The notes beneath the pieces were generated by a model. That model worked only from the letters and a program-made list of their open reading frames with translations, was not told where the DNA came from and ran no database searches. From the sequence record MW233709: DNA of 64,000 nt; one strand, 5' to 3'. This DNA comes from Escherichia phage UPEC01. The position numbers and the translations under genes were made by a program. Numbering within the stretch: the first letter of the stretch is position 1; the number at the start of each line of letters is the position of its first letter. This document shows, piece by piece, positions 442 through 55,008 of the stretch.

Positions 442-476
442 GTGTACAACCAAATGGGGCTATGACATAATGGTCC
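442..476 (+). promoter_or_regulatory. early promoter cassette (GTGTACAA -35-like, CATAATG -10-like)
   Basis: GTGTACAA 442-449, 16-nt spacer, CATAAT 466-471; member of repeated cassette family upstream of CDS 499. Confidence 0.5.
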
Positions 477-498
477 CACAATCAATGAGGAAAATATT

Positions 499-1185
499 AT
501 GAACGGTCCTAAAACTTTTAATAGTCAAGCTCGTGCAGTAGGTGGTTTTGCCGGCGGTATTTCTAATGATAAAATCAAGAACGAGCCTATGTTCTTCAAC
601 TGTAGTTTAGAATTTGCTTATAATAACGGCGGTCCTATTACTCGCAGCTTCATCATGAACTTGCCAGATGATTGGAACACCGACCAGGTTGTATTTGATT
701 CTCGGGTTCATATGCTGATGCCTGGTTGGTATCCTGCTATCCCAGGTTATCACCATGACGATGTACCACGCCCGGATATTCCGGTTGGTCAACACTTTAT
801 TACTGCAGGGCAACCTGATTATGATAATCCTCGTTACCATTCTGAACATATTCTTGGTCTTGTTAACGCTGATGTGTGTCCTACTTATTTTGCAACCGGA
901 ACTGCACAATTTAGTCAGATTCCTGAAGGCGAACTTATCTATCGCCAGTGGCATAAAGAAGTTCTGGAAAAAATTGAGTCCAATGAATTAACCAAGTGGG
1001 ATGCTCCTGACCGCACGTTGCTCCAGTTTGATTGGCAGACATGGCATACAGGTTCTCGCGCAGTAAGTAACGGTTGGCGCTGGTTTGGTCGCGTGTCTCG
1101 TAATACCGACCGTGTTAAAAAGATTACAAATGAAATCCGCGTTAATGCTCAAGTATATCTGGAATTCCCTATGGAGGGATGGTAA
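499..1185 (+). CDS. hypothetical protein (228 aa)
   Basis: Intact ORF with ATG after promoter cassette; no confident motif. Confidence 0.65.
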   Translation: MNGPKTFNSQARAVGGFAGGISNDKIKNEPMFFNCSLEFAYNNGGPITRSFIMNLPDDWNTDQVVFDSRVHMLMPGWYPAIPGYHHDDVPRPDIPVGQHFITAGQPDYDNPRYHSEHILGLVNADVCPTYFATGTAQFSQIPEGELIYRQWHKEVLEKIESNELTKWDAPDRTLLQFDWQTWHTGSRAVSNGWRWFGRVSRNTDRVKKITNEIRVNAQVYLEFPMEGW

Positions 1186-1760
1186 TGATGTATGAACCCG
1201 GTTGCATGGGTGATATGAAAGGTCCACAAGGATGTGCAGGTATTCCAGTTCCAAGAGATGAATTTATGATTACCAAAAGATATTGGGCAGACCTTGATGA
1301 TGGCGATGAAGGAATCAAGGTGGAAAACGTTGATTGGTCGCGATGCAATCGCCATATGAAAGAGCTTTTAATTGAGGAATATAAAATGAAGCACATCGTT
1401 AAAGGTTGGCAACCAGAACCACATAAAGAACAAACACCTGACCCATTGATTTGTTATAGTGAAAAATATGGTTTTCGTACATGGAGCGATGAATATGACA
1501 AGTTAGTGTGCTCCAGATTCTATGCCTGGATGGGAATACTATTTTTTCCAATCCTGTGGTTTTTCCTGACAACGAAAAATGACTTGCCAGTTTGCATATT
1601 CGGGGCAGCAGTGACTGCGGCCATTGCAGGTATTATCGCCTCATTTTTATGGACTGCGATTATTGAAGTACCTTTTCGTATTTCTAAAGTTAAAAAGGTA
1701 TATGACAATATCACAAAGAAAAATACATTGAACTCTTTTATTGAGGAATGTCGCAAATGA
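1185..1760 (+). CDS. hypothetical membrane protein
   Basis: GGAGGG SD 6 nt upstream of ATG 1185; C-terminal hydrophobic helices (ILFFPILWFFL, AAVTAAIAGIIASFLW). Confidence 0.55.
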   Translation: MMYEPGCMGDMKGPQGCAGIPVPRDEFMITKRYWADLDDGDEGIKVENVDWSRCNRHMKELLIEEYKMKHIVKGWQPEPHKEQTPDPLICYSEKYGFRTWSDEYDKLVCSRFYAWMGILFFPILWFFLTTKNDLPVCIFGAAVTAAIAGIIASFLWTAIIEVPFRISKVKKVYDNITKKNTLNSFIEECRK

Positions 1761-1993
1761 GTATTGCAATTTATATTAAATCCGAGTCATGTGATTCTTA
1801 CCTGTATTCCTATGATAAAGGTACGCCCGAAGTTGAAATCAAAGATGATTTAGAAATTGACCTGGACTTGTTCCGCCCAATTTCTGAATACAGAGTTCAA
1901 ACTTCTAGTAGTGAATCACCTTCAACAGAAACACGCATTGAAATTATTATGGCTGAAATCTTTAAAAAATCTTGGGAACGTGATGATGAGTAA
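1757..1993 (+). CDS. hypothetical small acidic protein
   Basis: ORF overlapping stop of upstream gene (ATGA coupling). Confidence 0.45.
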   Translation: MSIAIYIKSESCDSYLYSYDKGTPEVEIKDDLEIDLDLFRPISEYRVQTSSSESPSTETRIEIIMAEIFKKSWERDDE

Positions 1994-2444
1994 GAAAAAC
2001 GTGGTGAAAGAATTATCTGCTGGCATTATTTTCATGACTGAAGATAAAGAGTTATTCATGGGGCGCGTGACTGGTTCTCGCAAACCGGGTATGCCTGCGC
2101 ATAAATGGGATATCCCTAAGGGTCATGTTGAAGCCGGTGAATCCCCGATTGAAGCAGCTATGCGTGAATGTGAAGAAGAAACAGGCTTTACCCAGTATGA
2201 CCCGGCATTCTTAAAAGACCTAGGCGAGTTCCGTTATTCAGATAACAAAAACCTTCACCTGTTTTTGTACACGGCCCCGGTCGAGCATGAGCAGTTCAGA
2301 CATAGTAAATGCTCTGCCTATCATACCTTCCCGGATGGTAGTTCGGTCCCCGAGTTTGATGCATTTGCTCTGATTAAACCGAGCCAATGGCAATACGTAA
2401 TGGGTAAATCGATGTACAAGGTTTTGACTCAAATTTTCGGATAA
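1983..2444 (+). CDS. nudE: Nudix hydrolase (T4 NudE / e.1-like)
   Basis: Nudix box GHVEAGESPIEAAMRECEEETGF; position immediately upstream of lysozyme gene. Confidence 0.8.
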   Translation: MMSKKNVVKELSAGIIFMTEDKELFMGRVTGSRKPGMPAHKWDIPKGHVEAGESPIEAAMRECEEETGFTQYDPAFLKDLGEFRYSDNKNLHLFLYTAPVEHEQFRHSKCSAYHTFPDGSSVPEFDAFALIKPSQWQYVMGKSMYKVLTQIFG

Positions 2445-2470
2445 TAAATACCCCTATATAAGGGGGTATT
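2443..2470 (+). promoter_or_regulatory. late-promoter-like AATAAATA plus hairpin CCCC-tatataa-GGGGG covering the e ribosome-binding site
   Basis: AATAAATA 2443-2450; stem 2451-2454/2462-2466 includes Shine-Dalgarno; ATG at 2471. Confidence 0.5.
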
Positions 2471-2962
2471 ATGAATATATTCGAAATGTTACGCATAGAT
2501 GAAGGTTGTAAGTTGGATTTGTACCGTGACACCGAAGGCTTTTGGACCATCGGCATCGGTCAATTGATAACTAAGAACCCATCGAAAGACGTTGCTCGCG
2601 CTGAGCTGGACAAATTAATGGGTCGTGTTTGCAACGGTAGGATTACCCAGATTGAAGCTGAAACCTTGTTTAACCGTTCAGTGGAAAAAGCTAAAGCCGG
2701 AATCTTGAAACATCCTGTCTTAAAACCTGTTTATGATGTACTGGATGAAGTTCGTCGTTGCGCACTCATTAATATGGTATTCCAAATGGGTGTAGCTGGT
2801 GTAGCTGGTTTTCCTAAGGGGCTGCGATTGCTCAAGGCTAAATCATGGGAAGCTGCTGCTAAGGAACTGGCTGACTCAAGATGGTATAAAGTCCAGACTC
2901 CGAACCGGGCCAAACGAGTTATTGAAACTTTCCGTACTGGAACTTTTGACGCATACAAATGA
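2471..2962 (+). CDS. e: T4-type lysozyme (endolysin)
   Basis: Near-collinear match to recalled T4 lysozyme ([12 protein letters not shown]..., DAYK C-terminus). Confidence 0.95.
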
Positions 2963-3018
2963 GTTTACATCTCCAAACGATAGGGTTATAATGACCCTAT
3001 CAACTACGGAGAACAAAC
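2963..3018 (+). promoter_or_regulatory. early promoter cassette upstream of denV
   Basis: GTTTACA 2963-2969, TATAAT 2987-2992, leader CCCTATCAACTACGGAG. Confidence 0.5.
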
Positions 3019-3435
3019 ATGACTCGCATTAATTTAACCCTGGTATCTGAACTTGCTGACCAACACCTTATGGCTGAATACCGTGAGCTTCCTCGCGTGT
3101 TTGGTGCTGTTCGTAAGCATGTGCAAAATGGTAAAAAGGTGTCTGACTTTAAAATCCCATCATCTTTTCTTTTAGGAACTGGTCATGTCACCTTCTTTTA
3201 TGATAAGCTTTTGTTCCTTAAAAACCGTCATCAAGAACTTATTGCTGAATGTTTAAAGCGAGGGTTTAATATAAAAGATATTTCTACCCAAGATTTAAAT
3301 GATATTCCTGATGAATGGAAGAATGATTATCAACCATCAATCTGGTCAATTGAAATCAGTCAATCCAGACTGAATGAGAAAATTTCTCAAAAGCCTACCT
3401 GGTACAAATACTATGGGAAAGCTGTGTACGCTTAA
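3019..3435 (+). CDS. denV: endonuclease V (pyrimidine-dimer DNA glycosylase)
   Basis: Strong match to recalled T4 DenV ([34 protein letters not shown]...). Confidence 0.95.
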
Positions 3436-3483
3436 CTAAAAAGGTTGTATAATGATTTTATCAACCAAACAATGGAATATAAA

Positions 3484-3798
3484 ATGAAAACTTATCAAGA
3501 ATTTATTACTGAATCTACTCAACAACGTGTTGAAGGTGGTTATGTCTGGATTGAACAGTTAACCCCACCAAGTGAAACAAGCACTGGTTCGTGGAAAATT
3601 ACTGTTGATGGTCCTGGTGGAAAACGCAAGACTATTAAAGAAATTAAAGGTTATTATGACGAAGCTAAATCATGGGCTGGTAGTCATGTAATGCAGATTA
3701 AAATTGCAAACCCAGATAACGTTCATGCGGCAAAAGCGTTCCGTCGCATTGGTAATAAACTTTATGATGCGTTTTTGCGCGATTTCCCTAAAGCTTAA
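3484..3798 (+). CDS. internal head protein (IPII/IPIII-like) with capsid-targeting leader
   Basis: N-terminus MKTYQEFITE matches T4 internal-protein targeting sequence; ORF-track upstream extension rejected. Confidence 0.8.
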   Translation: MKTYQEFITESTQQRVEGGYVWIEQLTPPSETSTGSWKITVDGPGGKRKTIKEIKGYYDEAKSWAGSHVMQIKIANPDNVHAAKAFRRIGNKLYDAFLRDFPKA

Positions 3799-3811
3799 CT
3801 AAAGAGCCATT

Positions 3812-4075: not shown

Positions 4076-4217
4076 TAATTAAATGGGAATAACCTGGACC
4101 TCAATCCTGAGGGACTCCCGCCAACCTGTAATAAGGTCGAGCCCGCAGCGGTAATGGGTAATACAGGAAGGGATGAATTAATGTGCCAAGGAACGGCCCC
4201 ACAACTAAGAGACAACT

Positions 4218-5252: not shown

Positions 5253-5831
<579 letters not shown>

Positions 5832-5832
<1 letters not shown>

Positions 5833-5888
5833 TGTACAAGCAGGTTGAAATGAGTTATGATTATCCCATCAAACAAAAGGAGATAATC
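5832..5888 (+). promoter_or_regulatory. early promoter cassette
   Basis: GTGTACAA 5832-5839, TATGAT -10-like, leader ATCCCATCAAACAAAAGGAG. Confidence 0.5.
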
Positions 5889-6347
5889 ATGACTACTATC
5901 GATTCAAGTGTTTACATTCGCCGCAATAAACTTCGTCGTATTTTTGAAACGGAGTTCCTCAAAATTAATAATGCTATCAACAAGGCTTGTAAAGAAGCAG
6001 GTCTTGAAGCATTCTTCATTAAGTACAGTCCACACCTGTTGGACCGTGCAATCCAACGTGAAATTGACGAACAATATGTTTTTGACTTGTTTGGAAAAAT
6101 CACACCACATGTAAAAGAAATCGTTGAATTCCTGGAGATGAAACCACTCCCGGAAGTTGAAGCACAAATTGACCCGAGTGTGAACTACCGTCCACTTCGT
6201 CTGGAAATCACAGACAAGAACCTATGGTTAGGAATGACAGTTAACCCAGCTCTTCCTGGGAAGTCTCCAACCATGTGTTGTCGTATGGCGTTTGTTAACT
6301 CTAATCGTCTTGAAGGAAAAATTAGCACAAAAGTGATTTATATCTAA
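5889..6347 (+). CDS. hypothetical protein
   Basis: ATG after AAGGAG SD at end of promoter leader. Confidence 0.55.
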   Translation: MTTIDSSVYIRRNKLRRIFETEFLKINNAINKACKEAGLEAFFIKYSPHLLDRAIQREIDEQYVFDLFGKITPHVKEIVEFLEMKPLPEVEAQIDPSVNYRPLRLEITDKNLWLGMTVNPALPGKSPTMCCRMAFVNSNRLEGKISTKVIYI

Positions 6348-9702: not shown

Positions 9703-9706
9703 TTCA

Positions 9707-9736
9707 AAAGGTCTGCCTTCGGGTGGACCTTTTTTC
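9707..9736 (+). terminator. rho-independent terminator
   Basis: GC stem with TTCG loop then TTTTT. Confidence 0.6.
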
Positions 9737-9744
9737 ATTTAGGG

Positions 9745-9802
9745 GTTTACATCCTCATCAAAAGGGTGTACTATTATCCCATCAACTACTGAGGAGAATA
9801 CA
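9745..9802 (+). promoter_or_regulatory. early promoter cassette with CAACTACTGA leader
   Basis: GTTTACA 9745-9751, GGGTGTACTATTAT, leader ATCCCATCAACTACTGAGGAG. Confidence 0.5.
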
Positions 9803-10006
9803 ATGAGAATTAAAAATATCAAGATTGATGCAGTTAATACTGGTGATGAGGTTGTTATCTATCTTAATGATTATGCAATCTTTATGGACAGTGCCACTGA
9901 TGAAGAAGTGGTTGAACTCTTACAGAAAGCTCCATTTGAACTGTGTGAAGAAGATGCTACTCATCTTTCATCAGCAATTTTCTCATTATCATATGTGGTG
10001 GAATAA
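9803..10006 (+). CDS. hypothetical protein
   Basis: ATG directly after cassette leader. Confidence 0.5.
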   Translation: MRIKNIKIDAVNTGDEVVIYLNDYAIFMDSATDEEVVELLQKAPFELCEEDATHLSSAIFSLSYVVE

Positions 10007-13034: not shown

Positions 13035-13060
13035 AAGGACCCTTCGGGGTCCTTTTTTAT
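13035..13060 (+). terminator. rho-independent terminator
   Basis: AAGGACCC-TTCG-GGGTCCTT then T-run. Confidence 0.65.
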
Positions 13061-13071
13061 TTTAAAAAGTA

Positions 13072-13142
13072 GTGTACAACCAGATGGTCATGAGGCATAA
13101 TGATTCCATACTGAGTTAACAAATAAACAAACGGAGAATAAA
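13072..13142 (+). promoter_or_regulatory. early promoter cassette (CCATACTGAGTTA leader variant)
   Basis: GTGTACAA 13072-13079, CATAATG 13096-13102, leader TTCCATACTGAGTTA. Confidence 0.5.
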
Positions 13143-13349
13143 ATGTTAGAATTAATCAAAGCTGCTGGTGAAAAAGGTCTGATGGTTAACACTCGTGACC
13201 CAGAACAACGTCAAGCATTTGGTGAGTTAAAAGCCAAAGGTCTGGTTAAAGCATCCCTTGGTATTGGTAATGCTTTGCGTGTGACTTTGACCCCTGCAGG
13301 TAAAGCAATGTTCTTCCCTAAACCATTACCAAAACGTCGTCGCAAGTGA
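13143..13349 (+). CDS. hypothetical basic protein
   Basis: ATG after GGAGAATAAA leader. Confidence 0.5.
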   Translation: MLELIKAAGEKGLMVNTRDPEQRQAFGELKAKGLVKASLGIGNALRVTLTPAGKAMFFPKPLPKRRRK

Positions 13350-13355
13350 GGAATT

Positions 13356-13658
13356 ATGAAAAAGTATGAACTTGACATGATTGAGGCATGTCTGAAATCT
13401 GCTGACCATTTTAAGTTGAAAATGCACAAGTTAAGAGGAATGGTCAAAACTTCAGAAGAGAAGAAGCGATATGCTCTGAAGGAGAAATGTAAAGCTCTTA
13501 TCATGATGGATAAGCTGCAAATGGTCGCCGCAGAAGCTCACAGGACACGTAAGGCTGAGGCCCTTGGTGTTTATATGGCAGAGCAGCTTCATCGTGCCCA
13601 GCAAGCCGTTAAGAGCGTCTGGTTCAGCGGTGAAAATACTGAAAGAACTTTTAATTAA
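13356..13658 (+). CDS. hypothetical protein
   Basis: GAGG SD; intact ORF. Confidence 0.5.
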   Translation: MKKYELDMIEACLKSADHFKLKMHKLRGMVKTSEEKKRYALKEKCKALIMMDKLQMVAAEAHRTRKAEALGVYMAEQLHRAQQAVKSVWFSGENTERTFN

Positions 13659-13660
13659 AT

Positions 13661-13726
13661 GTGTACATAGTATGGGGATAGACGTATAATGTTCCCATAC
13701 TGAGTTACCAAATACTGGAGAATAAA
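13661..13726 (+). promoter_or_regulatory. early promoter cassette (CCATACTGAGTTA leader variant)
   Basis: GTGTACAT, TATAATG, TTCCCATACTGAGTTA. Confidence 0.5.
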
Positions 13727-14251
13727 ATGGAAGCCAAATCAATCTTTAATCTGATTAATTACAATAATGGTAATTTTAAATCAGAAGCACAAAGTAAGTT
13801 CTTTAATGATGTTGCTTGTGCAGGCGAGATTACAGTATCAGGTGGTCAGACTTATAAAAACGCCTGGAACTGGATTGTGACTGTTGATTCAGTTGGTATT
13901 GTTGATGTGTATAAAAACACCAACAAAAACCGCTCTTTGTTCTGGTCAAGAGAGACTAATGCAGAATATCAAGCGGCAAGAGCAAAGAAAAATATGCCTA
14001 CTGAATCTGATGTACAAAACATCAAATCAGATATCCAATATTATGATGGTCTGATTGCTGAACAACAAGCAGTGCTTGATAAGTTCAATGAAATCAAAGC
14101 ATGTAAAGAGATTCCTGAATTCATGCGGGAATCAGTTAATGAACAATACAATCTCACTTCAGAGCGTATTGAAACCTATACCAAACAAAGAGCAGAGCGC
14201 CAGGTACTCCTTCAGAAGTTTGAAGAGCGTTTAAAGACGGTTCTCGCATAA
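13727..14251 (+). CDS. hypothetical protein
   Basis: Intact ORF after cassette. Confidence 0.55.
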   Translation: MEAKSIFNLINYNNGNFKSEAQSKFFNDVACAGEITVSGGQTYKNAWNWIVTVDSVGIVDVYKNTNKNRSLFWSRETNAEYQAARAKKNMPTESDVQNIKSDIQYYDGLIAEQQAVLDKFNEIKACKEIPEFMRESVNEQYNLTSERIETYTKQRAERQVLLQKFEERLKTVLA

Positions 14252-15467: not shown

Positions 15468-16349
15468 ATGAAAATTAAAACACGTAAAGAATATTCTCGA
15501 TTTGAACAGCGTGAAGGACGTGCAACCCGTCTTATCGCGATGAATTCTCTGGTTAACTTTGGCAAAATTAAATCAGGTTCTGCCACCCAGGGTTATGGCC
15601 AACGTATTGTAAGAATTAACTCTCTGAATGATTACTGCCGCCGCCCGGCGTTTTTGTTTGGTGCTACGGTTCGTAAGAGCATCAAGGAACTCCTGGCAGC
15701 TGGACTTCGTATTCGTAAAGCTCCGGTTAACATCAAGAACTATAATTTCAATTCCAGTAACTTGATTATCAATATCAAGAATGATGGCGTGCAGATTAAG
15801 TTCAAGCCAACCACCAAGGGCGATGTTGCTCTTTGTGATACCTTTAAAGAGGTTATGGGTATTGCACTGTTTTATATGCGTTATGCCGTTGAAGCATACA
15901 CGTTTGAAGAAGATACAAATTATATCCATCAAACAGAAAAATTCCTTAAAACTATAGTCATTGATATTAAATTAACTAAAGAATATCTTTTGTCTTATGC
16001 TCCTTATCAAGAGAAAAAGGAACCAGAAATGGCGGAACGTATCCCTACTGCATCATATGGTCCAGCATTTGCGGGTCAGTTTAAATCTTATGACCAGGCT
16101 AAAATTTCGCCACTGGACGTTAAAAACATGTACAAATGGAAAGTCCAACCATCCAGCTCTCTTGAAATCTTTAACCCACCAATGAAGCCTATTGAGAGCT
16201 ATCATGCTGATGCTATCCAGGAATCAGTTAACCGCTTAAATGGTCTGATTGAAGATGAGAAAAAGGGTATCCAGGATGTCCTGAATCGCATCAAGAACAT
16301 GGAAACGCAACGCAATAAATTGCAAGCTGCAATCAAAGCATTAAAATAA
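15468..16349 (+). CDS. hypothetical protein with C-terminal coiled-coil-like segment
   Basis: In-frame ATG 15468 just after upstream stop; earlier ATGs overlap previous gene. Confidence 0.55.
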   Translation: MKIKTRKEYSRFEQREGRATRLIAMNSLVNFGKIKSGSATQGYGQRIVRINSLNDYCRRPAFLFGATVRKSIKELLAAGLRIRKAPVNIKNYNFNSSNLIINIKNDGVQIKFKPTTKGDVALCDTFKEVMGIALFYMRYAVEAYTFEEDTNYIHQTEKFLKTIVIDIKLTKEYLLSYAPYQEKKEPEMAERIPTASYGPAFAGQFKSYDQAKISPLDVKNMYKWKVQPSSSLEIFNPPMKPIESYHADAIQESVNRLNGLIEDEKKGIQDVLNRIKNMETQRNKLQAAIKALK

Positions 16350-16407
16350 TGTTTACTTCCAAGGATGGAGGGAGTATAATGAATTCCTACTTTATGAGGA
16401 GAACACT

Positions 16408-23723: not shown

Positions 23724-23725
23724 AA

Positions 23726-37183: not shown

Positions 37184-37184
37184 G

Positions 37185-38284: not shown

Positions 38285-38337
38285 TATCCTATCTTAAACC
38301 TGTGAGAAAAATATAATGGTGCCTATGGAAAAAATGA

Positions 38338-39850: not shown

Positions 39851-41274
39851 AAACTATTTTATCCCAGCTACTCTTTAACAAGGAATATTTTGTTAAAGTC
39901 TGGCCATATCTGAATAACACATATTTTGAAAAGGGTCCAGCAAAGACCCTTTTTAATACGATTAACGAACACGTAAAAGAATATCAAGCGGTACCAACTA
40001 AGACTGCACTTGATATCGCGCTCGACAGTTCTGACCTTTCTGAAGTCGAATATGAAGGCACAAAGAAACTCTTAGGAGTCCTGGCCGATACTCCAGAAGA
40101 CCAGGAATGGTTGGTTAAAGAAACCGAGAAGTATGTACAGAAGTCTGCGATGTTCAATGCCACATCCAGGATTATCGAAATCCAGAGCAATGCCGAACTT
40201 CCGAAAGATAAACGTGATAAACGAATCCCGGATATTGGTGCTATCCCTGACATCATGCGCGATGCATTGTCTATCTGTTTTGACTCTGCTCTGGGCCATG
40301 ACTGGTTAAACGATTACGAAGCTCGATTCCAGACTTATCTGAACAAATCGAAGAAGGTTCCGTTCCGTATTAACATCCTGAATAAAATCACGAAGGGCGG
40401 GGTTGAGTACGGTACAGAGAACGTTTTACTGGCCGGGACGAACGTCGGCAAATCCCTTGGACTTTGTTCGCTGGCGGCTGACTATCTTCAGACTGGTCAT
40501 AATGTGCTTTATATAAGCATGGAAATGGCTGAAGAAGTATGTGCCAAACGTATTGATGCCAACTTGCTGGATGTGTCTCTGGATGATATTGATGAAGGTC
40601 ATGTGTCATGGGCGGAATACAAAAGTAAGATGGAAAAATGGCGTGCAGCCGGGACCCTTGGGACTCTGAAGATAAAACAATATCCAACTGGCGGTGCTCA
40701 TGCGGATACCTTCCGTGCATTGCTGAATGAATACAAACTGAAGCAAGGGTTTGTGCCGGATGTGATTATTGTTGACTACCTGGCAATCTGTGCAAGCTCA
40801 AGACTGAAAACGTTTACCGAAAACAGTTACGGCCTGATTAAGATGGTTGCAGAAGAACTTCGTGGTCTGGCGGTCGAGAAAAATGTGGTCCTGTGGACTG
40901 CAGCGCAGACAACCAGGGGTGCGAACGTTGCAGCTGAGATTGATATGGCTGACATCGCTGAATCTTTTGGTATTGCTCACACGGCCGACTTTATGTTGGG
41001 TGTTGTTGAGACCGAAGAATTCGCTCAAATGGGACTACAGTTAATCAAACAGCTTAAGTCTCGTTACGGCGATAAGAACTACTATAATAAATTCAAGATG
41101 GGTGTTAAGAAAGGTAATCAGCGCTGGTACGAGGTTGATGATGATTCAGCTCCTAAACAAGGCCCTACGGTTAAAGAAGCCACTGGTGAGATGAATCGCC
41201 AGGCTGAAATGAATAGACAAACCAGGGTCAACAGGAGCGACCTGGACGACCTTGCTGCTCAAATGAAATTCTAA
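39844..41274 (+). CDS. 41: replicative DNA helicase gp41 (DnaB-like; GTG start)
   Basis: GTG 39844 gives MVETILSQLLF matching recalled T4 gp41 N-terminus; Walker A GTNVGKS. Confidence 0.94.
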   Translation: MVETILSQLLFNKEYFVKVWPYLNNTYFEKGPAKTLFNTINEHVKEYQAVPTKTALDIALDSSDLSEVEYEGTKKLLGVLADTPEDQEWLVKETEKYVQKSAMFNATSRIIEIQSNAELPKDKRDKRIPDIGAIPDIMRDALSICFDSALGHDWLNDYEARFQTYLNKSKKVPFRINILNKITKGGVEYGTENVLLAGTNVGKSLGLCSLAADYLQTGHNVLYISMEMAEEVCAKRIDANLLDVSLDDIDEGHVSWAEYKSKMEKWRAAGTLGTLKIKQYPTGGAHADTFRALLNEYKLKQGFVPDVIIVDYLAICASSRLKTFTENSYGLIKMVAEELRGLAVEKNVVLWTAAQTTRGANVAAEIDMADIAESFGIAHTADFMLGVVETEEFAQMGLQLIKQLKSRYGDKNYYNKFKMGVKKGNQRWYEVDDDSAPKQGPTVKEATGEMNRQAEMNRQTRVNRSDLDDLAAQMKF

Positions 41275-41296
41275 AGACCTTCGGGTCTTTTTCATT
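41274..41296 (+). terminator. rho-independent terminator
   Basis: AAGACC-TTCG-GGTCTT then T-run. Confidence 0.6.
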
Positions 41297-41301
41297 TAGA
41301 G

Positions 41302-41362
41302 GTTTACAACACCATAAAAAGGGTGTACTATTATCCCATCAACTACTGATGAGGATAATAAA
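41302..41362 (+). promoter_or_regulatory. early promoter cassette with CAACTACTGATGAGGA leader
   Basis: GTTTACAAC, GGGTGTACTATTAT, ATCCCATCAACTACTGATGAGGATAATAAA. Confidence 0.5.
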
Positions 41363-41611
41363 ATGTTATTAGTTAATGTGCAGTACCAGTTCAAATCTGA
41401 AGAAGCTCTCCAAAAGTATGCTGATATTTGTGAGCATAATAAAAGAACAGCTGCCATTGTTGGTCTGAAGCCTTTTAAAATTTTGGATTGCTCCTTGAAC
41501 AGAGCAAGACGCTGGTGTAGTGTTGCCTGTCATGCTTCAGTTGAAGGGAATGATTATTTTTTCATTACTTTCAATGCACAAGATTTTCATTTAATTAATG
41601 AATTAAAATAG
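41363..41611 (+). CDS. hypothetical protein
   Basis: ATG after cassette leader. Confidence 0.5.
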   Translation: MLLVNVQYQFKSEEALQKYADICEHNKRTAAIVGLKPFKILDCSLNRARRWCSVACHASVEGNDYFFITFNAQDFHLINELK

Positions 41612-41689
41612 TGTACAAGCCCCTTGTCTTAGGACATAATGATTCCATACTGAGTTACACAATAAACCAACTGTTAAAAGGAAAACCAT
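41611..41689 (+). promoter_or_regulatory. early promoter cassette (CCATACTGAGTTA leader variant)
   Basis: GTGTACAA 41611-41618, CATAATG, TTCCATACTGAGTTA. Confidence 0.5.
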
Positions 41690-41992
41690 ATGTTTAATCA
41701 AACCGATATGAACCGTTACTATTTTGGTCAGTTCGCTCGCCGTGATGAAAACTGTGCTGCTCTTATCGCATCAGGCATTCAAACTGGTAAATTAATAAAG
41801 CTCAAAAGCGATGTTCAACCTTCATCTGTTCGCAGCTCTCTTCGTGAGTATCTGCTTGCAGGCGGGGCAGTATATGTTATCGCTGAACCTTTTGTTAACG
41901 TGTGCGACGATTACACAATTAGTGTGACTGTTATGCACCCAACTACTGGGAAAATTCGTTGTCTGACTATGCACAACTATGAGTTGGCGTAA
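41690..41992 (+). CDS. hypothetical protein
   Basis: Intact ORF. Confidence 0.5.
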   Translation: MFNQTDMNRYYFGQFARRDENCAALIASGIQTGKLIKLKSDVQPSSVRSSLREYLLAGGAVYVIAEPFVNVCDDYTISVTVMHPTTGKIRCLTMHNYELA

Positions 41993-42000
41993 GTGAATAA

Positions 42001-42060
42001 AGGGGCTTACAGCCCCTTTTTCTTATGTTATAATGACTCTATCAACTACTGGAGAATAAA
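42001..42060 (+). promoter_or_regulatory. terminator-like hairpin fused to early promoter cassette
   Basis: AGGGGC-TTAC-AGCCCCT + T-run; GTTATAATG; leader CTATCAACTACTGGAG. Confidence 0.45.
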
Positions 42061-42378
42061 ATGAAAACCATTGATTGCAAGGCAGAATACAAAGTTTATT
42101 ATCATGGGTCAAGTTCTAATGCTGGAATCCAAAATATGCTTTGTCCTCCTGATGCAACTGGTGTTCTGTCAGAAGTTGGGCGTAAGAAAAATTTAGGGCG
42201 TGTGTTTTTTACTGAAGATATTGGTTTGGCGCGTATCTATGCAGGAAGAGCAGCTCGCTCATATGGAGGAGAACCCCGTCTTTATCGTGTGATTGCACCT
42301 GTTGACGTGGTTTGTTTAAATGATACTAAAGGCGCAACAGTTTATCACGCTGACTGGGCCTTCTGTGAGGAAATCTAA
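42061..42378 (+). CDS. hypothetical protein with PARP-like H-G-S motif (possible minimal ADP-ribosyltransferase fold)
   Basis: YYHGSSSNAGI resembles PARP HGSRTTNFAGI; RVFFTED resembles GIYFAD; only 105 aa. Confidence 0.5.
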   Translation: MKTIDCKAEYKVYYHGSSSNAGIQNMLCPPDATGVLSEVGRKKNLGRVFFTEDIGLARIYAGRAARSYGGEPRLYRVIAPVDVVCLNDTKGATVYHADWAFCEEI

Positions 42379-42582: not shown

Positions 42583-42924
42583 ATGACTTTTAATCCAGAA
42601 GACCGCGTAAAAGTAACAATCAAAGTGAGTGCCGTTGGCGTTCCATCTTTTGAGCGCTCAAGTATGTTCCATCCCGCAGGTATTCACTGGTATGTTCAGA
42701 AGACTGCTGATAACTATAATGCGCTGGTTGAAGCTTTTGTTGATGACAAGCTAATTCATAAAGTAGACATGCGTAAGGGTACTGCATTGCGTAATCTGAT
42801 TTTGACCGTTGAAGCGCAACTGGTAAATGAAGAAATCTGCCTTACTGATATTGAAGCAGCTCTTCATATTGCACGTGCTGAATATTACAAATTGACTGGT
42901 TTTTCAGTTGAAGGTGAAAAATAA
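42583..42924 (+). CDS. hypothetical protein (paralogue of 42379 gene)
   Basis: YNALVEAFVDDKLIHKV; repeated junction. Confidence 0.5.
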   Translation: MTFNPEDRVKVTIKVSAVGVPSFERSSMFHPAGIHWYVQKTADNYNALVEAFVDDKLIHKVDMRKGTALRNLILTVEAQLVNEEICLTDIEAALHIARAEYYKLTGFSVEGEK

Positions 42925-42982
42925 GTGTACATCAAAGGGGTAATGCAGTATATTATCCCTATCAACTACTGAGGAGATTGAA
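42925..42982 (+). promoter_or_regulatory. early promoter cassette
   Basis: GTGTACAT, TATATTAT, CCCTATCAACTACTGAGGAG. Confidence 0.5.
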
Positions 42983-43276
42983 ATGAAAAAGTTATTAATC
43001 GCAGCAATTCTTACCGTAGCATCATGTGGTACAGCCCCAGTTACTGCTGGGCTTGATAAAGACCTTTGTGAGTGGTCCATGACTGCGGACCAGACTGATG
43101 TTGAACACCAGATTTATGCTGACATCATGAACATTACTAAACGTGACCACCCAGATATGGTTAAAGAAGTATCTGACCAACTGGCTTCTGGTGACGTTAT
43201 GCAGTATAACTATGTTCTGTATTGCGATGCTTCATTTGACAACAGCAAGATTGTTCAATGGGTTACAGGTGAATAA
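42983..43276 (+). CDS. hypothetical lipoprotein
   Basis: Lipobox VASCG. Confidence 0.55.
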   Translation: MKKLLIAAILTVASCGTAPVTAGLDKDLCEWSMTADQTDVEHQIYADIMNITKRDHPDMVKEVSDQLASGDVMQYNYVLYCDASFDNSKIVQWVTGE

Positions 43277-47273: not shown

Positions 47274-47278
47274 TTATA

Positions 47279-47303
47279 GGGAACCTTCGGGTTCCCTTTT
47301 TGC
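47279..47303 (+). terminator. rho-independent terminator
   Basis: GGGAACC-TTCG-GGTTCCC then TTTTT. Confidence 0.65.
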
Positions 47304-48886: not shown

Positions 48887-49120
48887 ATGAACTGGTTAAC
48901 AAATATCCCTACATCGGCGCTGGATATCGACCGGAAATACGCTCATAAGGAAGTCGAGCAACAAAAAATTAATCGCTTGCAAAGGCTTAAGACTGAATCC
49001 GAGACAATTAAAGTCGAAACCCCGATAAAATCGAAAAGTTCTTACTCATCATATCAATCTCCTATTGGCATGGCCACAGACATCGCTATCTTCGGCGTCC
49101 CACTTGGAGTATTTAAGTAG
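48887..49120 (+). CDS. hypothetical protein
   Basis: In-frame ATG 48887. Confidence 0.4.
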   Translation: MNWLTNIPTSALDIDRKYAHKEVEQQKINRLQRLKTESETIKVETPIKSKSSYSSYQSPIGMATDIAIFGVPLGVFK

Positions 49121-49176
49121 TTTACTTACTTCCCTCCTAATGACATAATGGTCTTTCTTACAACAGAGAGGCCATT

Positions 49177-49737
49177 ATGAACATCATCAAATCTGATACC
49201 GAACCCAACCAGTTAAAATTTAGTGAAATGGAGATAGCTTCATTATTTGAATGCCGTACATCAAAGGTTGATAAAACCTTGCATTCAAACATCAACTCAA
49301 TTATCAAGCCAAGGTTGTCTATACCCGATACAGTCTTGTGGCGCGGGGTAACCCAGCAAGAGATTGATTTGTTAGATGAAGCAAAAGAATCAATGCAACC
49401 TTTTGAATTTGGACGGATAACCTCCTTTACAGAAGACTATGGTATTGCCAGGGATTTTGCTGCAATGGAATATGCATCAAGGACTATCGTCAGATTGAAT
49501 CAGACAAAAGCTTTTTGTTACCATGATGCGATGCGCAAAATCGCGCTTGATGTTCCGCTGGAATTCTTCAATACAGTTTCTGGTTCCGAACAGGCAGCAA
49601 CGTTAAGACGTGAAGAATACATGGACATGATTGATTCTGAGCTTGAATGGTTTGTTCCAGTTGACCAGAAATTCGTGGTGGTTGATGCTGGATTTGTTGG
49701 TGATTATTATGTTCTTGACTGTGTACAAGAGCAATAA
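49177..49737 (+). CDS. ADP-ribosyltransferase (ModB-like by order)
   Basis: R-S-E-type ART motifs: LWRGV, SFT, ELEW. Confidence 0.65.
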   Translation: MNIIKSDTEPNQLKFSEMEIASLFECRTSKVDKTLHSNINSIIKPRLSIPDTVLWRGVTQQEIDLLDEAKESMQPFEFGRITSFTEDYGIARDFAAMEYASRTIVRLNQTKAFCYHDAMRKIALDVPLEFFNTVSGSEQAATLRREEYMDMIDSELEWFVPVDQKFVVVDAGFVGDYYVLDCVQEQ

Positions 49738-49781
49738 GACACGTTAAGATGCTCCTATCAACTACTGATGAGGATAATAAA
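49721..49781 (+). promoter_or_regulatory. early promoter cassette overlapping 3' end of upstream ART gene
   Basis: GTGTACAA 49721-49728, GTTAAGATG, CTCCTATCAACTACTGATGAGGA. Confidence 0.45.
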
Positions 49782-50396
49782 ATGCTGTACACTGATGACG
49801 TTTTGAATGGAATTATTGACACTGCCGCTTCTAGTGAGTCTTTTCGTGACCAATGTCAAGCAGAGATTGATGCTCTTTATACAGATAATGAGCAATCAGT
49901 ACTCTGGCAGTGTATGGAAAATAAACCTGACCTGATTCAAGAAGACTTAACCAGGATTATCCGCAACAATCTGAATACTACACCGCCGGCAGCGTTGTTC
50001 CGCGGTATATCAAAGAAAACCATGGAATACCTGGAAGATTTAAGATATGTTGGTGCGACAATTGAGTTCAACCGTGTGATGAGTTTTTCCAGAGACTGGC
50101 AGGTTGCAAGAAATTTCGCATCATATAGTTTCTATGGCACAAGGAATATTTTCTGCATAAACAATGCACCTTATGCGTATAACTATCAGGAAGCAATCTT
50201 TAAAATGATTTGCGGTGCTCCTCCTGAAGAGTTCAATGGTGCATATCCAGAAGCAACCAGGAAGTCAAACTTACACCTAGTTAATGATGAGGATGAGTTT
50301 ATGTTTCCCGCTGGGACTACGCTTCGCGTAGATTTGATTGAGAAACACCCATTGAATAACCTTTATACTGTTTGGCATTTGACTGTTTTGAACTAA
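49782..50396 (+). CDS. ADP-ribosyltransferase (ModA-like by order)
   Basis: LFRGI, SFSRD, DEDEF; ORF-track start lies inside promoter leader. Confidence 0.65.
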   Translation: MLYTDDVLNGIIDTAASSESFRDQCQAEIDALYTDNEQSVLWQCMENKPDLIQEDLTRIIRNNLNTTPPAALFRGISKKTMEYLEDLRYVGATIEFNRVMSFSRDWQVARNFASYSFYGTRNIFCINNAPYAYNYQEAIFKMICGAPPEEFNGAYPEATRKSNLHLVNDEDEFMFPAGTTLRVDLIEKHPLNNLYTVWHLTVLN

Positions 50397-50455
50397 CCAA
50401 AGACCTTAGAACCATTATACACGGTAAAAATAAAAGCGTTAAAGGCGAAAAAGTA

Positions 50456-50531
50456 GTGTACATGAAAGATGAATAGTGTATAATAATTCCATACTGAGTT
50501 ATTTAATCGTCCGTAAGATGAGAAAAATATC
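50456..50531 (+). promoter_or_regulatory. early promoter cassette (CCATACTGAGTTA leader variant)
   Basis: GTGTACAT, TATAATAA, TTCCATACTGAGTTA. Confidence 0.5.
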
Positions 50532-51278
50532 ATGACTTTATCAAAAACCAAAACGCTGAAAGTTAAACGTCGCCTGGAACACACTCAAGCTTCTGCTAAA
50601 CGTCGTGGTAAGGACTTTAACCTGGATTTCAATTACCTGGTTAACATTCTTGACCAAAAAGTTTGTGCTTATTCTGGTGAAGCATTTAATAACTCTATTG
50701 AAGACGAGAAGTTATCATTAGAACGTTTTAACAATGATATTGGTTATATCAAGGGTAATGTTATTCCTGTTAAAAAGAAATACAATACCATGCGTTCTGA
50801 TTGGTCCTTGGATGAGCTTAAACAACGTCGCGATGATGTTGCTGTAAAAATTGCTCGCCCCTCTGCCAAGAAGATTGAAAAGTTAAATCTGACTTCAGAG
50901 AAATGGGAACAGATTAAAAAGTCATATACTCATATCAAGAACATCCAGCACAAACGTGATAATCGCGTTAAGCATTATGCTCAAATGAGTAAATCAGAGC
51001 AGTCCAAAGAAAACCAATTAAAAATGGTTGCTCTGAAGGCTCGCATTGATGGTTCCCGTGTTGCGGAAGGACATGAGCTTACTAAATTGAATGTCCTGCT
51101 CAAAGGTAATGACTGGAAAGTTACCAAGAAATTAACTGATGCTGAAACGCTTTTTGATTGCTATGATAAAATCATTCAAGGTCTTGAGCGTTTTGAGAAG
51201 ATTGGTTTTATTGGTAAATTAAAACTGAAACGTGGTCTGCCTTTGAACGCGTCAATTTTTAAACTGATTAGAGGTTAA
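50532..51278 (+). CDS. hypothetical basic protein (Srd position)
   Basis: 248 aa between Mod-like genes and dda; LSLERFNNDIGYIKGNV resembles a degenerate HNH-like segment. Confidence 0.5.
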   Translation: MTLSKTKTLKVKRRLEHTQASAKRRGKDFNLDFNYLVNILDQKVCAYSGEAFNNSIEDEKLSLERFNNDIGYIKGNVIPVKKKYNTMRSDWSLDELKQRRDDVAVKIARPSAKKIEKLNLTSEKWEQIKKSYTHIKNIQHKRDNRVKHYAQMSKSEQSKENQLKMVALKARIDGSRVAEGHELTKLNVLLKGNDWKVTKKLTDAETLFDCYDKIIQGLERFEKIGFIGKLKLKRGLPLNASIFKLIRG

Positions 51279-53171: not shown

Positions 53172-53852
53172 ATTGATGCTATTATTGACTTTGAAACTCT
53201 GGGAAACGGCTCGAAGGGAGCCGTTATTGACCTGGCGCTGATTACATTCGAATCTGACCCTGCTATTGTGGAATCGTTCGAAACCCTGGTTAATCGCGGC
53301 AAACGCATTAAGTTTAGTCTCGAATACCAAAAAGGAAAACGTCTGTTTGATACAACAACCATGGGTTGGTGGAAAAAGCAATCAGCAGAAGCTCGTGTTA
53401 ACCTGACTCCTTCTGCACATGATGTTGATACTCTGACCGGTATCCAACAGGCGATTGACTATCTGAATGGTAATGGAATTAACAAATACGAAAGCCTTAT
53501 GTGGTGCCGTGGGATGTCTTTTGACTTCCCGTTGTTTGTTGACCTTATCCGCGACCTACAGCGCAATGAGGGGATTCCTGAGCGTGAATTGAATACCTAT
53601 AACCTGGAGCCGGTTGTATTCTGGAACCAGCGAGATATCAGGACAGCCATCGAAGCCTTGTCACTCGTCCGTAAGATGTGTGAAACCCCATTACCGAAAG
53701 GGACTTTAGATGGATTTGTGGCGCACGATTCGGTACATGACTGCGCGAAAGATATTTTGATGTTGAAGTATGCCCAGCGCTATGCTCTTGGTTTAGATGA
53801 AGTTCCTTCCGAAGAAGATGCAGACCCATTATCTTTGCCGAAAAAACGATAA
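53169..53852 (+). CDS. dexA: exonuclease A (DexA)
   Basis: IIDFET, WCRGMSFDFP, AHDSxHDCAKD match recalled T4 DexA; start 53169 (ATG) or 53166 (GTG). Confidence 0.93.
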   Translation: MIDAIIDFETLGNGSKGAVIDLALITFESDPAIVESFETLVNRGKRIKFSLEYQKGKRLFDTTTMGWWKKQSAEARVNLTPSAHDVDTLTGIQQAIDYLNGNGINKYESLMWCRGMSFDFPLFVDLIRDLQRNEGIPERELNTYNLEPVVFWNQRDIRTAIEALSLVRKMCETPLPKGTLDGFVAHDSVHDCAKDILMLKYAQRYALGLDEVPSEEDADPLSLPKKR

Positions 53853-53858
53853 AAAGTA

Positions 53859-53919
53859 GTGTACAAGGCCAATGGAAAGAGACATAATCATCTCATCAAC
53901 TACTGATGAGGATAACAAA
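53859..53919 (+). promoter_or_regulatory. early promoter cassette
   Basis: GTGTACAA, CATAATCA, CTCATCAACTACTGATGAGGATAAC. Confidence 0.5.
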
Positions 53920-54177
53920 ATGATTACTTCTTTTGAAATTGGCCAACAATATGAAATGTCCGCTCTTCAAGCTGCTGAAGCAGGTCTGACTAAAGCGTTT
54001 GAATGTGCATTTGCAAATATTCGTGGTAAAATCTTTACTGTCAATAAAATTGCGGTATATGATAAAGAAACTGATATGAACAAAGGCATCTACCTGAACG
54101 TGTCAAATGCAAAAGGTCGTCGTGAAATTATGGTTGTACAACCTAATCAACTGGCGATGTTCAATAAGGTTGCATAA
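53920..54177 (+). CDS. hypothetical protein
   Basis: ATG after cassette leader. Confidence 0.5.
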   Translation: MITSFEIGQQYEMSALQAAEAGLTKAFECAFANIRGKIFTVNKIAVYDKETDMNKGIYLNVSNAKGRREIMVVQPNQLAMFNKVA

Positions 54178-54932
54178 TGAAACCAGAATTTATTGACTTT
54201 GATGTTGTAAGTATGTATGTTCGCCCAATTAAACCATTAAAACTTGAGAAACAAAATATGACTATTGAAATTAACAAAACTTATCAACTGATTGAACCTA
54301 TTATTCAAAACGCAGCTATGGTTTCTGGGTATAATACTCTGACTGATGCTTTAGGTGAAGGTGAATTTATTGTTGAAACTTTTGTAAAAAGTAACTGGTT
54401 TGATAAAGCATATATTCTACATGCACGTCGCCTTGATACAAATGAAGTAGAAAAAATTATGGTTTATGAAGCTGAGATTGAACTCTTCAAAGAAGTTGAA
54501 GAAACTCCTATCAAAGTTGGTAAAACCTATCAGCTTATTGAAGATGATAGTCAGTTTGGAAAGACTGTCGCAATGCATGCTGGTTGGCGGGTACTGAAAG
54601 GTATTTTTGGATTTGCTCCATTTACCGTTAAAACAGTTAAGTACCACAATCACCAAAGCATCTTTGAATTTACTGCAGTCAATGAATCAGGTGACAATCT
54701 TGAAGCTATCCTTTATCCGCGTGAATCTGTGCTGCTGGAAGAAGTTAGCGAGCTTGGCGACCCTATTGACTTGCTATGTAAACCAGTTCAAATCAAACGC
54801 CCATTTAACAGTTCCATTTGTGGTTGGGTAACAGACCAGTGGATTGAAGATGGTGTTGAACTCCTGAACGTTGTTCATTGTGGTAGTTTTACTGTTGTAC
54901 CACGTTCCATGGTTGTTGAAATTTTTAATTAA
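54177..54932 (+). CDS. hypothetical protein with internal repeat (paralogue of 55009 gene)
   Basis: KTYQLIE repeated; C-terminal WVTDQWIEDGVELLNVVHCGSFTVVP shared with next gene. Confidence 0.55.
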   Translation: MKPEFIDFDVVSMYVRPIKPLKLEKQNMTIEINKTYQLIEPIIQNAAMVSGYNTLTDALGEGEFIVETFVKSNWFDKAYILHARRLDTNEVEKIMVYEAEIELFKEVEETPIKVGKTYQLIEDDSQFGKTVAMHAGWRVLKGIFGFAPFTVKTVKYHNHQSIFEFTAVNESGDNLEAILYPRESVLLEEVSELGDPIDLLCKPVQIKRPFNSSICGWVTDQWIEDGVELLNVVHCGSFTVVPRSMVVEIFN

Positions 54933-54936
54933 ATTT

Positions 54937-55008
54937 GTGTACAAACTCGTGGGGCCAGAGTATAATGGTCCCACTGGAGAATAAACTTATTAATCAAGAG
55001 AGAAAATT
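54937..55008 (+). promoter_or_regulatory. early promoter cassette
   Basis: GTGTACAA 54937-54944, TATAATGG, CCCACTGGAG. Confidence 0.5.

Follow-up and report, generated by a model that had tools for sequence, protein, structure and literature searches.

The 64,000-nt stretch of Escherichia phage UPEC01 analysed here (record MW233709), hereafter the window, carries many copies of a short module in which a promoter-like sequence is followed by a leader and the start codon of a small gene. What are these repeats, and what keeps them alike? An initial annotation had taken them for a repeated early-promoter/leader cassette resembling the "promoter early stem-loop" (PeSL) cassettes of RB49-like phages, and saw them as boundaries of hyperplastic gene modules. 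On sequence grounds we regard the repeats, with a probability of roughly 85%, as early promoters of a T4-like phage that are served by the host polymerase and laid out as composite PeSLs. This arrangement is already known, and the repeats are not a new kind of element.

Architecture and placement of the cassettes

The window was assigned to a T4-like coliphage of the genus Gaprivervirus (VR7/VR25/TH41 group); a 15-kb stretch of it shows 97.4% identity to Escherichia virus TH41 and 92–95% to vB_EcoM_VR25, VR20 and VR7. By synteny with VR25 and VR7 the genes are arranged as e.2/denV region, tk, nrdC, nrdD, gp55, gp47–gp43, uvsX, gp41, gp61, dda, gp39, rIIA and rIIB, and the + strand carries all long open reading frames (ORFs). 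Given this T4-type gene order and the single strand of the long ORFs, the sequence of the window is that of a T4-type genome's early/middle strand.

A search for the strict pattern GT[GT]TACA-N16-17-[CT]ATAAT matched nine + strand sites and no − strand site. A weight matrix of two blocks, one for the upstream tract and the −35 element and one for the −10 element and the next 12 nt, was applied with leave-one-out scoring and revealed 20 cassettes, all on the + strand, with scores of 11–45 bits. The top-scoring non-member on either strand reached 7.5 bits, and shuffled sequence yielded 0.2 sites of at least 10 bits. The −35 elements start at 442, 2963, 3424, 5832, 9745, 13072, 13661, 16351, 19224, 23730, 37186, 41302, 41611, 42005, 42925, 49120, 49721, 50456, 53859 and 54937. 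The repeated module is thus real, and the range of 442–55008 proposed for it is exact, the first cassette beginning at 442 and the last reaching the ATG at 55009; the proposed "at least 16 copies" was too low. A generic sigma-70 scan gave 68 promoter-like sites versus 52.8 expected and did not discriminate promoters; it was useful for terminators only.

Positions are numbered from a predicted start site, the A located 7 nt past the −10 hexamer (+1). Each cassette consists, in this order, of an A-rich tract, GT(G/T)TACA, a spacer, the −10 hexamer, YCCA at the predicted start, a leader of 20–43 nt, a Shine-Dalgarno (SD) sequence and ATG. GT(G/T)TACA is exact in 16 of the 20 cassettes and carries one mismatch in the other four; G−36 and C−31 are present in 19/20 copies each, and T−35, (G/T)−34, T−33, A−32 and A−30 are conserved as well. 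The spacer, earlier given as 15–17 nt, measures 17 nt in 19 cassettes and 16 nt in one. A−11 and T−7 of the −10 hexamer are invariant (20/20), T−12 is also conserved, and G is found at −16 in 12 and at −13 in 11 copies. In the upstream tract A occupies −40 in 18/20 cassettes and −41, −42 and −44 in 13/20 each, while around the start C occurs at −3, −2 and −1 in 14, 16 and 13 of 20 copies, followed by A+1 (17/20) and a conserved T+2. All 20 cassettes are located on the coding strand with an SD-preceded ATG 20–43 nt past the start, and in 13 of them the stop codon of the preceding gene abuts or overlaps the −35 element. The distance from −35 to ATG spans 56–79 nt, or about 110 nt at most when upstream terminators are included. 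The favoured −35 core TGTACA is a perfect palindrome, and of the 30 TGTACA hexamers that the window contains, 11 belong to cassette −35 elements; position −34 alternates between G and T among orthologues (e.g. at 2963 and 42005).

This predicted anatomy matches that published for T4-type early promoters, which have GTTTAC at −36 to −31, an A-rich segment at −40 to −44 and, in RB69, RB49 and 44RR, C at −3 to −1 (Nolan 2006, PMC1524935; Hinton 2010, PMC2988021). TATAAT with its invariant A−11 and T−7 is likewise common to the cassettes and the T4 early promoters, which moreover precede the same early genes (motB, modB, sp, imm, 55.6, pin, srd). T4 promoter-like sites were found before motB, modB, sp, imm.1, 55.6, pin and srd, with a recognisable common leader at sp, imm.1 and srd; the T4 sp promoter has AACTACTGAGGAGATT in common with cassette 15 and the T4 srd promoter CGTCCGTAAGATG with cassette 18. 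The T4 motB promoter (PmotB) has the same hairpin, GGGACC...GGTCCC, around the −10 element. Unlike the T4 promoters, the cassettes favour G at −34, rarely possess TGn, have CCC at −3 to −1 as reported for RB69, RB49 and 44RR, and use two leader families on which T4 draws only occasionally.

The genes behind the cassettes point in the same direction. By synteny with VR25 they comprise orthologues of the T4 early genes denV, an ip10-like internal protein gene, regB, a mobD.5-like gene, nrdC.8, nrdC.4, a PinA-like gene, 55.6, imm, sp, modB, modA, srd and motB; the remaining cassette-driven genes are six small uncharacterised ORFs. The weight-matrix scan of the window detected no cassette in the core replication block at 23.8–37.2 kb (gp55 to gp43) or past 55 kb (gp39, rIIA, rIIB), and cassettes cluster at 41.3–43.0 kb and 49.1–50.5 kb.

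The likeness to RB49-type PeSLs holds for the layout (PMC2839356, PMC4122927), and this fit, together with the location before T4 early-gene orthologues, supports the designation as early-promoter cassettes. In a PeSL, a sigma-70-type early promoter follows an AT-rich tract and is combined with a stem-loop, for which five positions are distinguished, before the SD sequence and ATG; about 100 bp are conserved, and PeSLs are concentrated in hyperplastic regions (Arbiol 2010, PMC2839356). Their stem is most often placed over the −10 element or between the boxes and often reads GGGG...CCCC (PMC2839356). They were later extended to T4/PST with the promoter TTTACW-N17-TAYWAT (Comeau 2014, PMC4122927), and PeSL-like sequences were mentioned for JS98 (PMC2839356). 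Like the PeSLs of RB49/phi1, PST/T4 and nt-1/KVP40, the cassettes combine an AT-rich tract, a 17-nt spacer, a stem-loop of variable position that is often GGGG...CCCC, and SD plus ATG at the 3′ end of about 100 bp of common sequence. They also occur in a single orientation among small accessory ORFs, are absent from core blocks, and show cassette-to-cassette gain and loss at one locus. They differ from the RB49 PeSLs in their −35 element, which is GT(G/T)TACA instead of a near-perfect TTGACA. Further differences are that only about 11 of the 20 cassettes have a stem and that breakpoints in this window are no commoner at cassettes than at other gene junctions. We found no open-access account of early promoters of VR7 (or its group) or JS98, so these sites may have been listed before by the genome authors, and no sequencing-based mapping of T4 start sites was found in the literature. 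Like lambdoid morons, some units (41302–41611, 41611–42005 and an extra TH41 module) place a promoter, a small ORF and a terminator between existing genes; unlike in morons, the flanking regulatory sequences here are a conserved family in operon orientation, mostly fixed at orthologous positions across genera.

That the cassettes are instead MotA/AsiA-dependent middle promoters, or late promoters, is very unlikely. Middle promoters do have the −10 hexamer in common with them, and a copy lacking the −35 element (24724–24761) and a site near uvsX (38253) resemble the downstream half of a cassette. Nevertheless, GTKTACA is present at −36 to −30 in all 20 copies (four with one mismatch), and the MotA box (TGCTT near −30) and the late motif TATAAATA, as defined in PMC1524935 and PMC2988021, are both missing from all 20.

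Several points weigh against the assignment as early promoters in PeSL layout. The extended −10 TGn is part of the T4 "uber" early promoter, typical of T4 although not obligatory, and it is mostly absent here, TG being present at −15/−14 in few copies only (e.g. 442 and 49120). G at −34 (GTGTACA) fits TTGACA worse than the GTTTACA of T4 does. Nine of the 20 cassettes have no convincing stem, so that the hairpin is not obligatory, and stems with the −10 element in the loop lack a following U-run and are thus not classical intrinsic terminators. Start site, early timing and terminator activity are all deduced, and the assignment of RegB sites is a motif match to the specificity of the T4 enzyme.

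If the assignment as early promoters is correct, each cassette would be a compact expression unit set between one gene's stop codon and the next start codon. Unmodified or Alt-modified host sigma-70 RNA polymerase would start at the predicted A right after infection, and the mRNA with its G-poor, unstructured leader of 20–43 nt would load ribosomes efficiently. Later the phage's own RegB, encoded behind cassette 4, would inactivate messages with RegB-type ribosome-binding sites, to which about half of the copies have a motif match. The stems might act on upstream read-through RNA as terminator, attenuator or 3′-end protector and so insulate the units. The 60–100 bp or so common to the copies can also serve as homology patches, for which one locus and a single mosaic copy give examples, but they are not the main site of insertions and deletions (indels). 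The picture of how T4-like infection starts is unchanged by these results. They provide, for this phage group, a map of 20 early transcription units with predicted starts and likely RegB-controlled messages, which can serve annotation as well as the engineering of therapeutic T4-like phages. The additions to the known arrangement are modest: covariation of the hairpin with the −10 element in its loop, a concentration of RegB sites, and a negative breakpoint test controlled for gene junctions.

Leaders and RegB-type sites

Two conserved leaders had been described for the cassettes. Leader A (AUCAACUAC...) is present in 11 copies, four of them partial or variant (3424, 5832, 37186, 42005), and leader B (AUACUGAGUUA) in 4, whereas the five cassettes at 442, 16351, 19224, 49120 and 54937 have neither. 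With up to three mismatches the leader A query ATCCCATCAACTACTGA matched 8 times on the + strand compared to 0.22 expected for both strands, and the leader B query TTCCATACTGAGTTA matched 4 times versus 0.15 expected.

Leader conservation extends beyond the window. Six Gaprivervirus genomes carry 20–27 copies each in the equivalent region and on the same strand, with a single opposite-strand match each in TH44 and VR7 only, and the leader class is constant at every orthologous site. Among orthologues the −35 element is 98.4%, the −10 element 97.6% and the segment +1 to +12 98.3% identical, compared to 91.6% for the spacer, 86.2% for the upstream tract and 94.1% for nearby coding sequence. The Dhakavirus-like genome PQ561406, whose identity to the window is 70–80%, carries the cassette 30 times within 100 kb, always on one strand and mostly with the −10 sequence TACTAT and leader A. 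Since the leader is retained both in orthologues and in the Dhakavirus-like genome, its start has been constrained over long times and is no remnant of a recent duplication.

These comparisons bear on the view that the copies resemble each other merely through recent duplication or gene conversion, with no selected function beyond that of a generic promoter. The cassettes at 9745 and 41302 do have terminator, spacer and leader in common, and a mosaic copy in TH44, described below, shows that exchange occurs. However, the spacers of paralogues are unrelated (32% identity) although boxes and leader are common, the leader is better kept than coding sequence among orthologues, and cassette sequences group by locus rather than by genome, as the constant leader class per site indicates. 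Furthermore, the same leader and hairpin geometry recur at orthologous genes in T4 and in the Dhakavirus-like phage (70–80% genome identity), and compensatory changes hold the stems paired. We therefore consider recent duplication very improbable as the explanation.

What is conserved in the leader? A hairpin formed by CATCA-ACTAC-TGATG just before the SD sequence had been proposed as part of it. The complete inverted repeat occurs in 4 copies only (23730, 41302, 49721, 53859), with a variant at 37186. When folded from the predicted +1, only AUCA and UGAU (4 bp) can pair, with a negligible −0.6 kcal/mol; in leader A copies with CTGAGGAG, CTGGAG or CGGAG at their end the hairpin is impossible, and it is absent from most A-type copies. 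For 18 of the 20 leaders the predicted folding energy was 0 to −1.3 kcal/mol. We conclude that the leaders are kept unstructured and G-poor and that the conserved feature is the linear sequence, which would fit a role as initial transcribed sequence or in ribosome/S1 loading. Rfam (at the gathering threshold) and tRNA searches gave no match; the leaders are therefore not a curated RNA family. A hammerhead-like CUGAUGAG in leader A was dropped, as it had no fitting GAAA core or helices and no Rfam match. Near uvsX a middle-promoter-like site (38253–38340) was noticed, with the MotA-box-like TGCTCT, 13 nt, TATAAT and then TATCCTATC, which is the start context of leader A (TATCCYATC).

It has to be considered whether leaders A and B act in cis as RNA elements, in an earlier version as a 5′ hairpin that steers translation or marks an RNase target. 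The conservation of +1 to +12 at the level of the −35 and −10 elements would agree with this, as would the recurrence of leader A in most of the 30 copies of the Dhakavirus-like phage and in three T4 promoters, and the inverted repeat in four copies. The near-absence of predicted structure and of Rfam matches argues against it, and TATCCYATC after the −10 element of the uvsX site suggests a constraint on the start site or the initial transcribed sequence instead of an RNA fold. A cis-acting RNA element is thus distinctly unlikely, and a conserved linear leader is preferred.

The proposal that the leader hairpin is a RegB target failed with the hairpin, whereas for the ribosome-binding site it is reasonable in view of motif matches. 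An efficient target of T4 RegB with S1 is the 11-nt GGAGAAUAAAA, GGAU being tolerated with a strict A-rich tail (Durand 2006, PMC1702504). GGAGAAUAAAA with at most one mismatch was found 8 times on the + strand and twice on the − strand, compared to 1.2 in shuffles. Seven of the eight + strand matches lie in cassette leaders (9745, 13072, 13661, 41302, 42005, 49721, 54937), and the eighth, at 24751, lies in the copy lacking the −35 element. In six cassettes the motif is the SD sequence itself, 10 nt before the start codon, and in a seventh it directly follows the hairpin. In the target, GGA(G/U) is single-stranded and precedes 7 nt that are rich in A and poor in C; the motif and the leaders, which are predicted to be unstructured, agree with this form. 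Exact or one-mismatch copies of the 11-nt site of T4 early mRNAs are thus placed at SD sequences, and regB itself lies behind a cassette; in about half of the cassettes the ribosome-binding site is of the GAGGA type or another one. That RegB-consensus sites are concentrated in leaders is a modest addition to what is known.

Stem-loops and module boundaries

GGGG...CCCC-type hairpins had been noted in several copies, and such hairpins are indeed present. About 11 of the 20 cassettes have a stem-loop: the −10 element is in the loop at 442, 2963, 13661, 42925 and 54937, the −35 element at 23730 and 42005, the stem lies between the boxes at 37186, and a separate terminator precedes the cassettes at 9745, 13072 and 41302. 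Folding of the segment from 45 nt 5′ of the −35 element to +10 gave a mean z of −1.9 against dinucleotide shuffles, 8 copies being below −2. Arms paired better with their own partners than with permuted ones (mean helix 5.55 versus 4.87 bp, P~0.0005), and the Dhakavirus-like genome had 10 stems of at least 7 bp compared to 2.2 expected, a count reached in none of 1000 permutations. A canonical terminator with stem and U-run is present in only four copies (9745, 13072, 41302, 42005), and the terminator scan reported intrinsic terminators at 41273–41290 and 41999–42019. A strong intrinsic terminator without an adjoining cassette is located at 47278–47297 (AGGGAACCTTCGGGTTCCCT plus T-run).

The stem with the −10 element in its loop was followed across genera. 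In the motB/442 family, which includes T4 PmotB, 98.7% of cells are paired and in two pairs both partners have changed (AU/GC/GU and CG/UA/GC); neither the observed pairing nor the observed covariation was reached in any of 500 shuffles. This set holds 11 related sequences, and the covariation is counted as support, not as proof. Pairing appears to be held by compensatory changes across T4, Gaprivervirus and Dhakavirus-like phages, and that this stem has been kept from T4 to the present phage is modestly new. The family contains nine G·U cells, which would be A·C on the opposite strand. The sense strand is therefore the one on which the stem is most probably read, and there it would act on RNA reading through from upstream.

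Preservation of this hairpin across genera suggests a selected role at the RNA level. A tentative reading, possible though not one we favour, is that it is a selected element of read-through transcripts instead of a by-product of promoter sequence, and that it works as a "cistron separator": the hairpin would cap and protect the 3′ end of the upstream message, RegB would cut just downstream, and the embedded promoter would restart transcription. In the motB/55.2 subfamily a RegB-type site (GGAGAAUAAAC or GGAUAAUAAAA) directly follows the hairpin.

For the claim that the cassettes bound hyperplastic modules, the window was compared with six genomes by chained BLAST alignments, giving 40 distinct indel events of at least 30 bp in this one 64-kb window. 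Eight of the 40 have boundaries at cassettes, versus 2.6 expected for random placement (P=0.004). Nevertheless, there was no excess over other gene junctions among the six genomes (7/19 cassette junctions versus 35/106 others, P=0.47), nor among junctions with a spacer of at least 40 nt (7/19 versus 14/28), so that the claim is only weakly supported. The idea of PeSL shuffling should accordingly be controlled with gene junctions, not random positions. In relatives, the majority of inserts bring no cassette of their own and are placed between a stop codon and a −35 element already present, and 12 of the 20 cassettes are without any event in the six genomes.

The sole clear cassette-to-cassette locus is at 41.3–42.0 kb, which contains the units 41302 plus an 82-aa ORF and 41611 plus a 100-aa ORF. 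Here 41292–41630 is missing in VR25 and VR7 and 41275–41999 in TH22 and TH40, in both cases from cassette to cassette. At window position 4075, TH41 and TH44 contain 623 additional bp, a module that starts with its own cassette. That every module has its own promoter was rejected as a general rule, since only this module and those at 41.3–42.0 kb do. TH44 also contains a mosaic cassette (L013:18155-18300, past the right end of the window) with an unrelated gene behind it: terminator, A-tract and −35 element resemble the cassette at 13072 (81% over 131 bp), while spacer, −10 element and leader B resemble that at 41611 (94% over 65 bp). Exchange between copies happens, and cassettes are not preferred breakpoints in these data.

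Could the cassettes be primarily recombination modules, PeSLs in the strong sense, whose common sequence is kept for excision, insertion and shuffling while the promoter is secondary? The two exact cassette-to-cassette deletions, the enrichment over random positions, the mosaic copy, the extra module headed by a cassette, and the mini-circles reported for RB49 and phi1 (PMC2839356) would all agree with this. On the other hand, enrichment vanishes against gene junctions, the majority of inserted segments lack a cassette, more than half of the cassettes are eventless, and positions and leader class are constant among orthologues back to T4; moreover, the conserved positions are those read by RNA polymerase. 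We judge a primary role in recombination unlikely and retain the early promoter as the principal function.

Three further features of the window were noticed. The spacer before the vs.8-like gene (4076–4217, 143 nt) is unusually long for an intergenic region, GC-richer than its surroundings and unstructured (fold z=+0.5). The nrdD-nrdG block at 20505–22914 (2.4 kb) is missing in VR7 and TH44, which have about 125–135 bp in its place; its edges are not at cassettes. Past rIIB, a 244-bp segment (63182–63427) is replaced by an unrelated segment of 316 bp in TH41, TH22, TH40 and TH44.

The individual cassettes

All cassettes lie on the + strand and are numbered from left to right. Cassette 1 (428–501; −35 at 442–448, −10 at 466–471, predicted +1 at 478, ATG at 499) has a leader of neither class and precedes the gene for a 228-aa protein like VR7 gp134. 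Its stem TGGGGCTA/TGGTCCCA at 455–478 holds the −10 element in the loop (z=−3.05). Cassette 2 (2949–3021; −35 at 2963, −10 at 2987–2992, +1 at about 2999) leads with leader A into denV, identified by synteny with VR25 (ATG 3019), and has an 8-bp stem GATAGGGT/ACCCTATC around TATAATG (z=−3.0). A weak leader A (ATCAACCAAAC) and the −35 sequence GTGTACG at 3424 characterise cassette 3 (3410–3486; −10 at 3448–3453), which reaches 13.8 bits in leave-one-out scoring and precedes the gene of an ip10-like internal protein (ATG 3484). Cassette 4 (5818–5891; −35 at 5832, −10 TATGAT at 5856–5861), upstream of regB (ATG 5889), has a partial leader A and no stem.

In cassette 5 (9706–9805; −35 at 9745, −10 TACTAT at 9769–9774) an intrinsic terminator at 9706–9733 with a subsequent T-run (z=−5.6) precedes the promoter; leader A and the SD sequence GGAGAATACAA follow before a mobD.5-like gene (ATG 9803). 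Cassettes 6 and 7 both have leader B and the SD sequence GGAGAATAAAA. Cassette 6 (13035–13145; −35 at 13072, −10 at 13096–13101) belongs to the gene of a 68-aa protein (ATG 13143) and begins with the terminator GGACCCTTCGGGGTCC plus T-run at 13035–13060, and cassette 7 (13647–13729; −35 at 13661, −10 at 13685–13690), upstream of nrdC.8 (ATG 13727), has a 13-bp stem TAGTATGGGGATA/TGTTCCCATACTG around the −10 element (z=−3.1). Leaders of neither class are found in cassette 8 (16337–16410; −35 GTTTACT at 16351, −10 at 16375–16380, 13.1 bits), which precedes nrdC.4 (ATG 16408), and in cassette 9 (19210–19296; −35 at 19224, −10 at 19248–19253), which lies in or beside a 49.1-like ORF upstream of a PinA-like gene (ATG 19294) and has an orthologous site in T4.

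Cassette 10 (23716–23793; −35 at 23730, −10 TATCAT) carries leader A in its TGATGAGGAG form before 55.6 (ATG 23791), and its stem AAAGGGG/CCCCTTT at 23724–23745 has the −35 element in the loop. Cassette 11 (37172–37255; −35 at 37186, −10 TATGAT) shows a variant of leader A before imm (ATG 37253) and the hairpin CGGCAAT-GGA-TTGCCG in the spacer (37193–37210). Cassette 12 (41273–41365; −35 at 41302, −10 TACTAT) starts with the terminator at 41273–41290 and drives, through leader A and the SD sequence GGATAATAAAA, the 82-aa ORF (ATG 41363) that is missing in VR7, VR25, TH22 and TH40. With leader B, cassette 13 (41597–41692; −35 at 41611, −10 at 41635–41640) precedes the 100-aa ORF missing in TH22 and TH40 (ATG 41690). 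Cassette 14 (41991–42063; −35 GCTTACA at 42005, −10 at 42029–42034, ATG 42061) has a partial or variant leader A and the SD sequence GGAGAATAAAA; its −35 element sits in the loop of the intrinsic terminator AAAGGGGC-TTACA-GCCCCTTT plus T-run (41999–42019). The stem AGGGGTAAT/ATTATCCCT lies over the −10 sequence TATATT of cassette 15 (42911–42985; −35 at 42925), which leads with leader A into sp, encoding spackle (ATG 42983).

Cassette 16 (49106–49179; −35 GTTTACT at 49120, −10 at 49144–49149, 12.0 bits), with a leader of neither class, precedes modB (ATG 49177), and inside the end of modB lies the −35 element (49721) of cassette 17 (49707–49784; −10 TAAGAT, 11.1 bits), which has leader A and the SD sequence GGATAATAAAA before modA (ATG 49782). 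The 16-nt spacer belongs to cassette 18 (50442–50534; −35 at 50456, −10 at 50479–50484, leader B) upstream of srd (ATG 50532). Cassette 19 (53845–53922; −35 at 53859, −10 at 53883–53888) has leader A in the TGATGAGGA form before an 85-aa ORF (ATG 53920). Cassette 20 (54923–55011; −35 at 54937, −10 at 54961–54966), the orthologue of T4 PmotB, precedes motB (ATG 55009) with a leader of neither class; its stem GTGGGGCCA/TGGTCCCAC (z=−2.65) shows covariation, holds the −10 element in the loop and is directly followed by GGAGAATAAAC.

The copy without a −35 element (24724–24794, + strand) has the stem GGGGTC-ATGGTATAAT-GACCCC with GGATAATAAAA directly after it and the ATG of a 55.2-like gene at 24792; it scores 10.7 bits in the downstream block and −5.7 bits in the upstream block of the matrix. 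It is either a cassette that has degenerated or a member of another promoter class. The GGAU site of T4 55.2 is one of only two such sites reported to be cut by RegB (PMC1702504). In the Dhakavirus-like genome a comparable copy carries the hairpin together with a complete −35 element.

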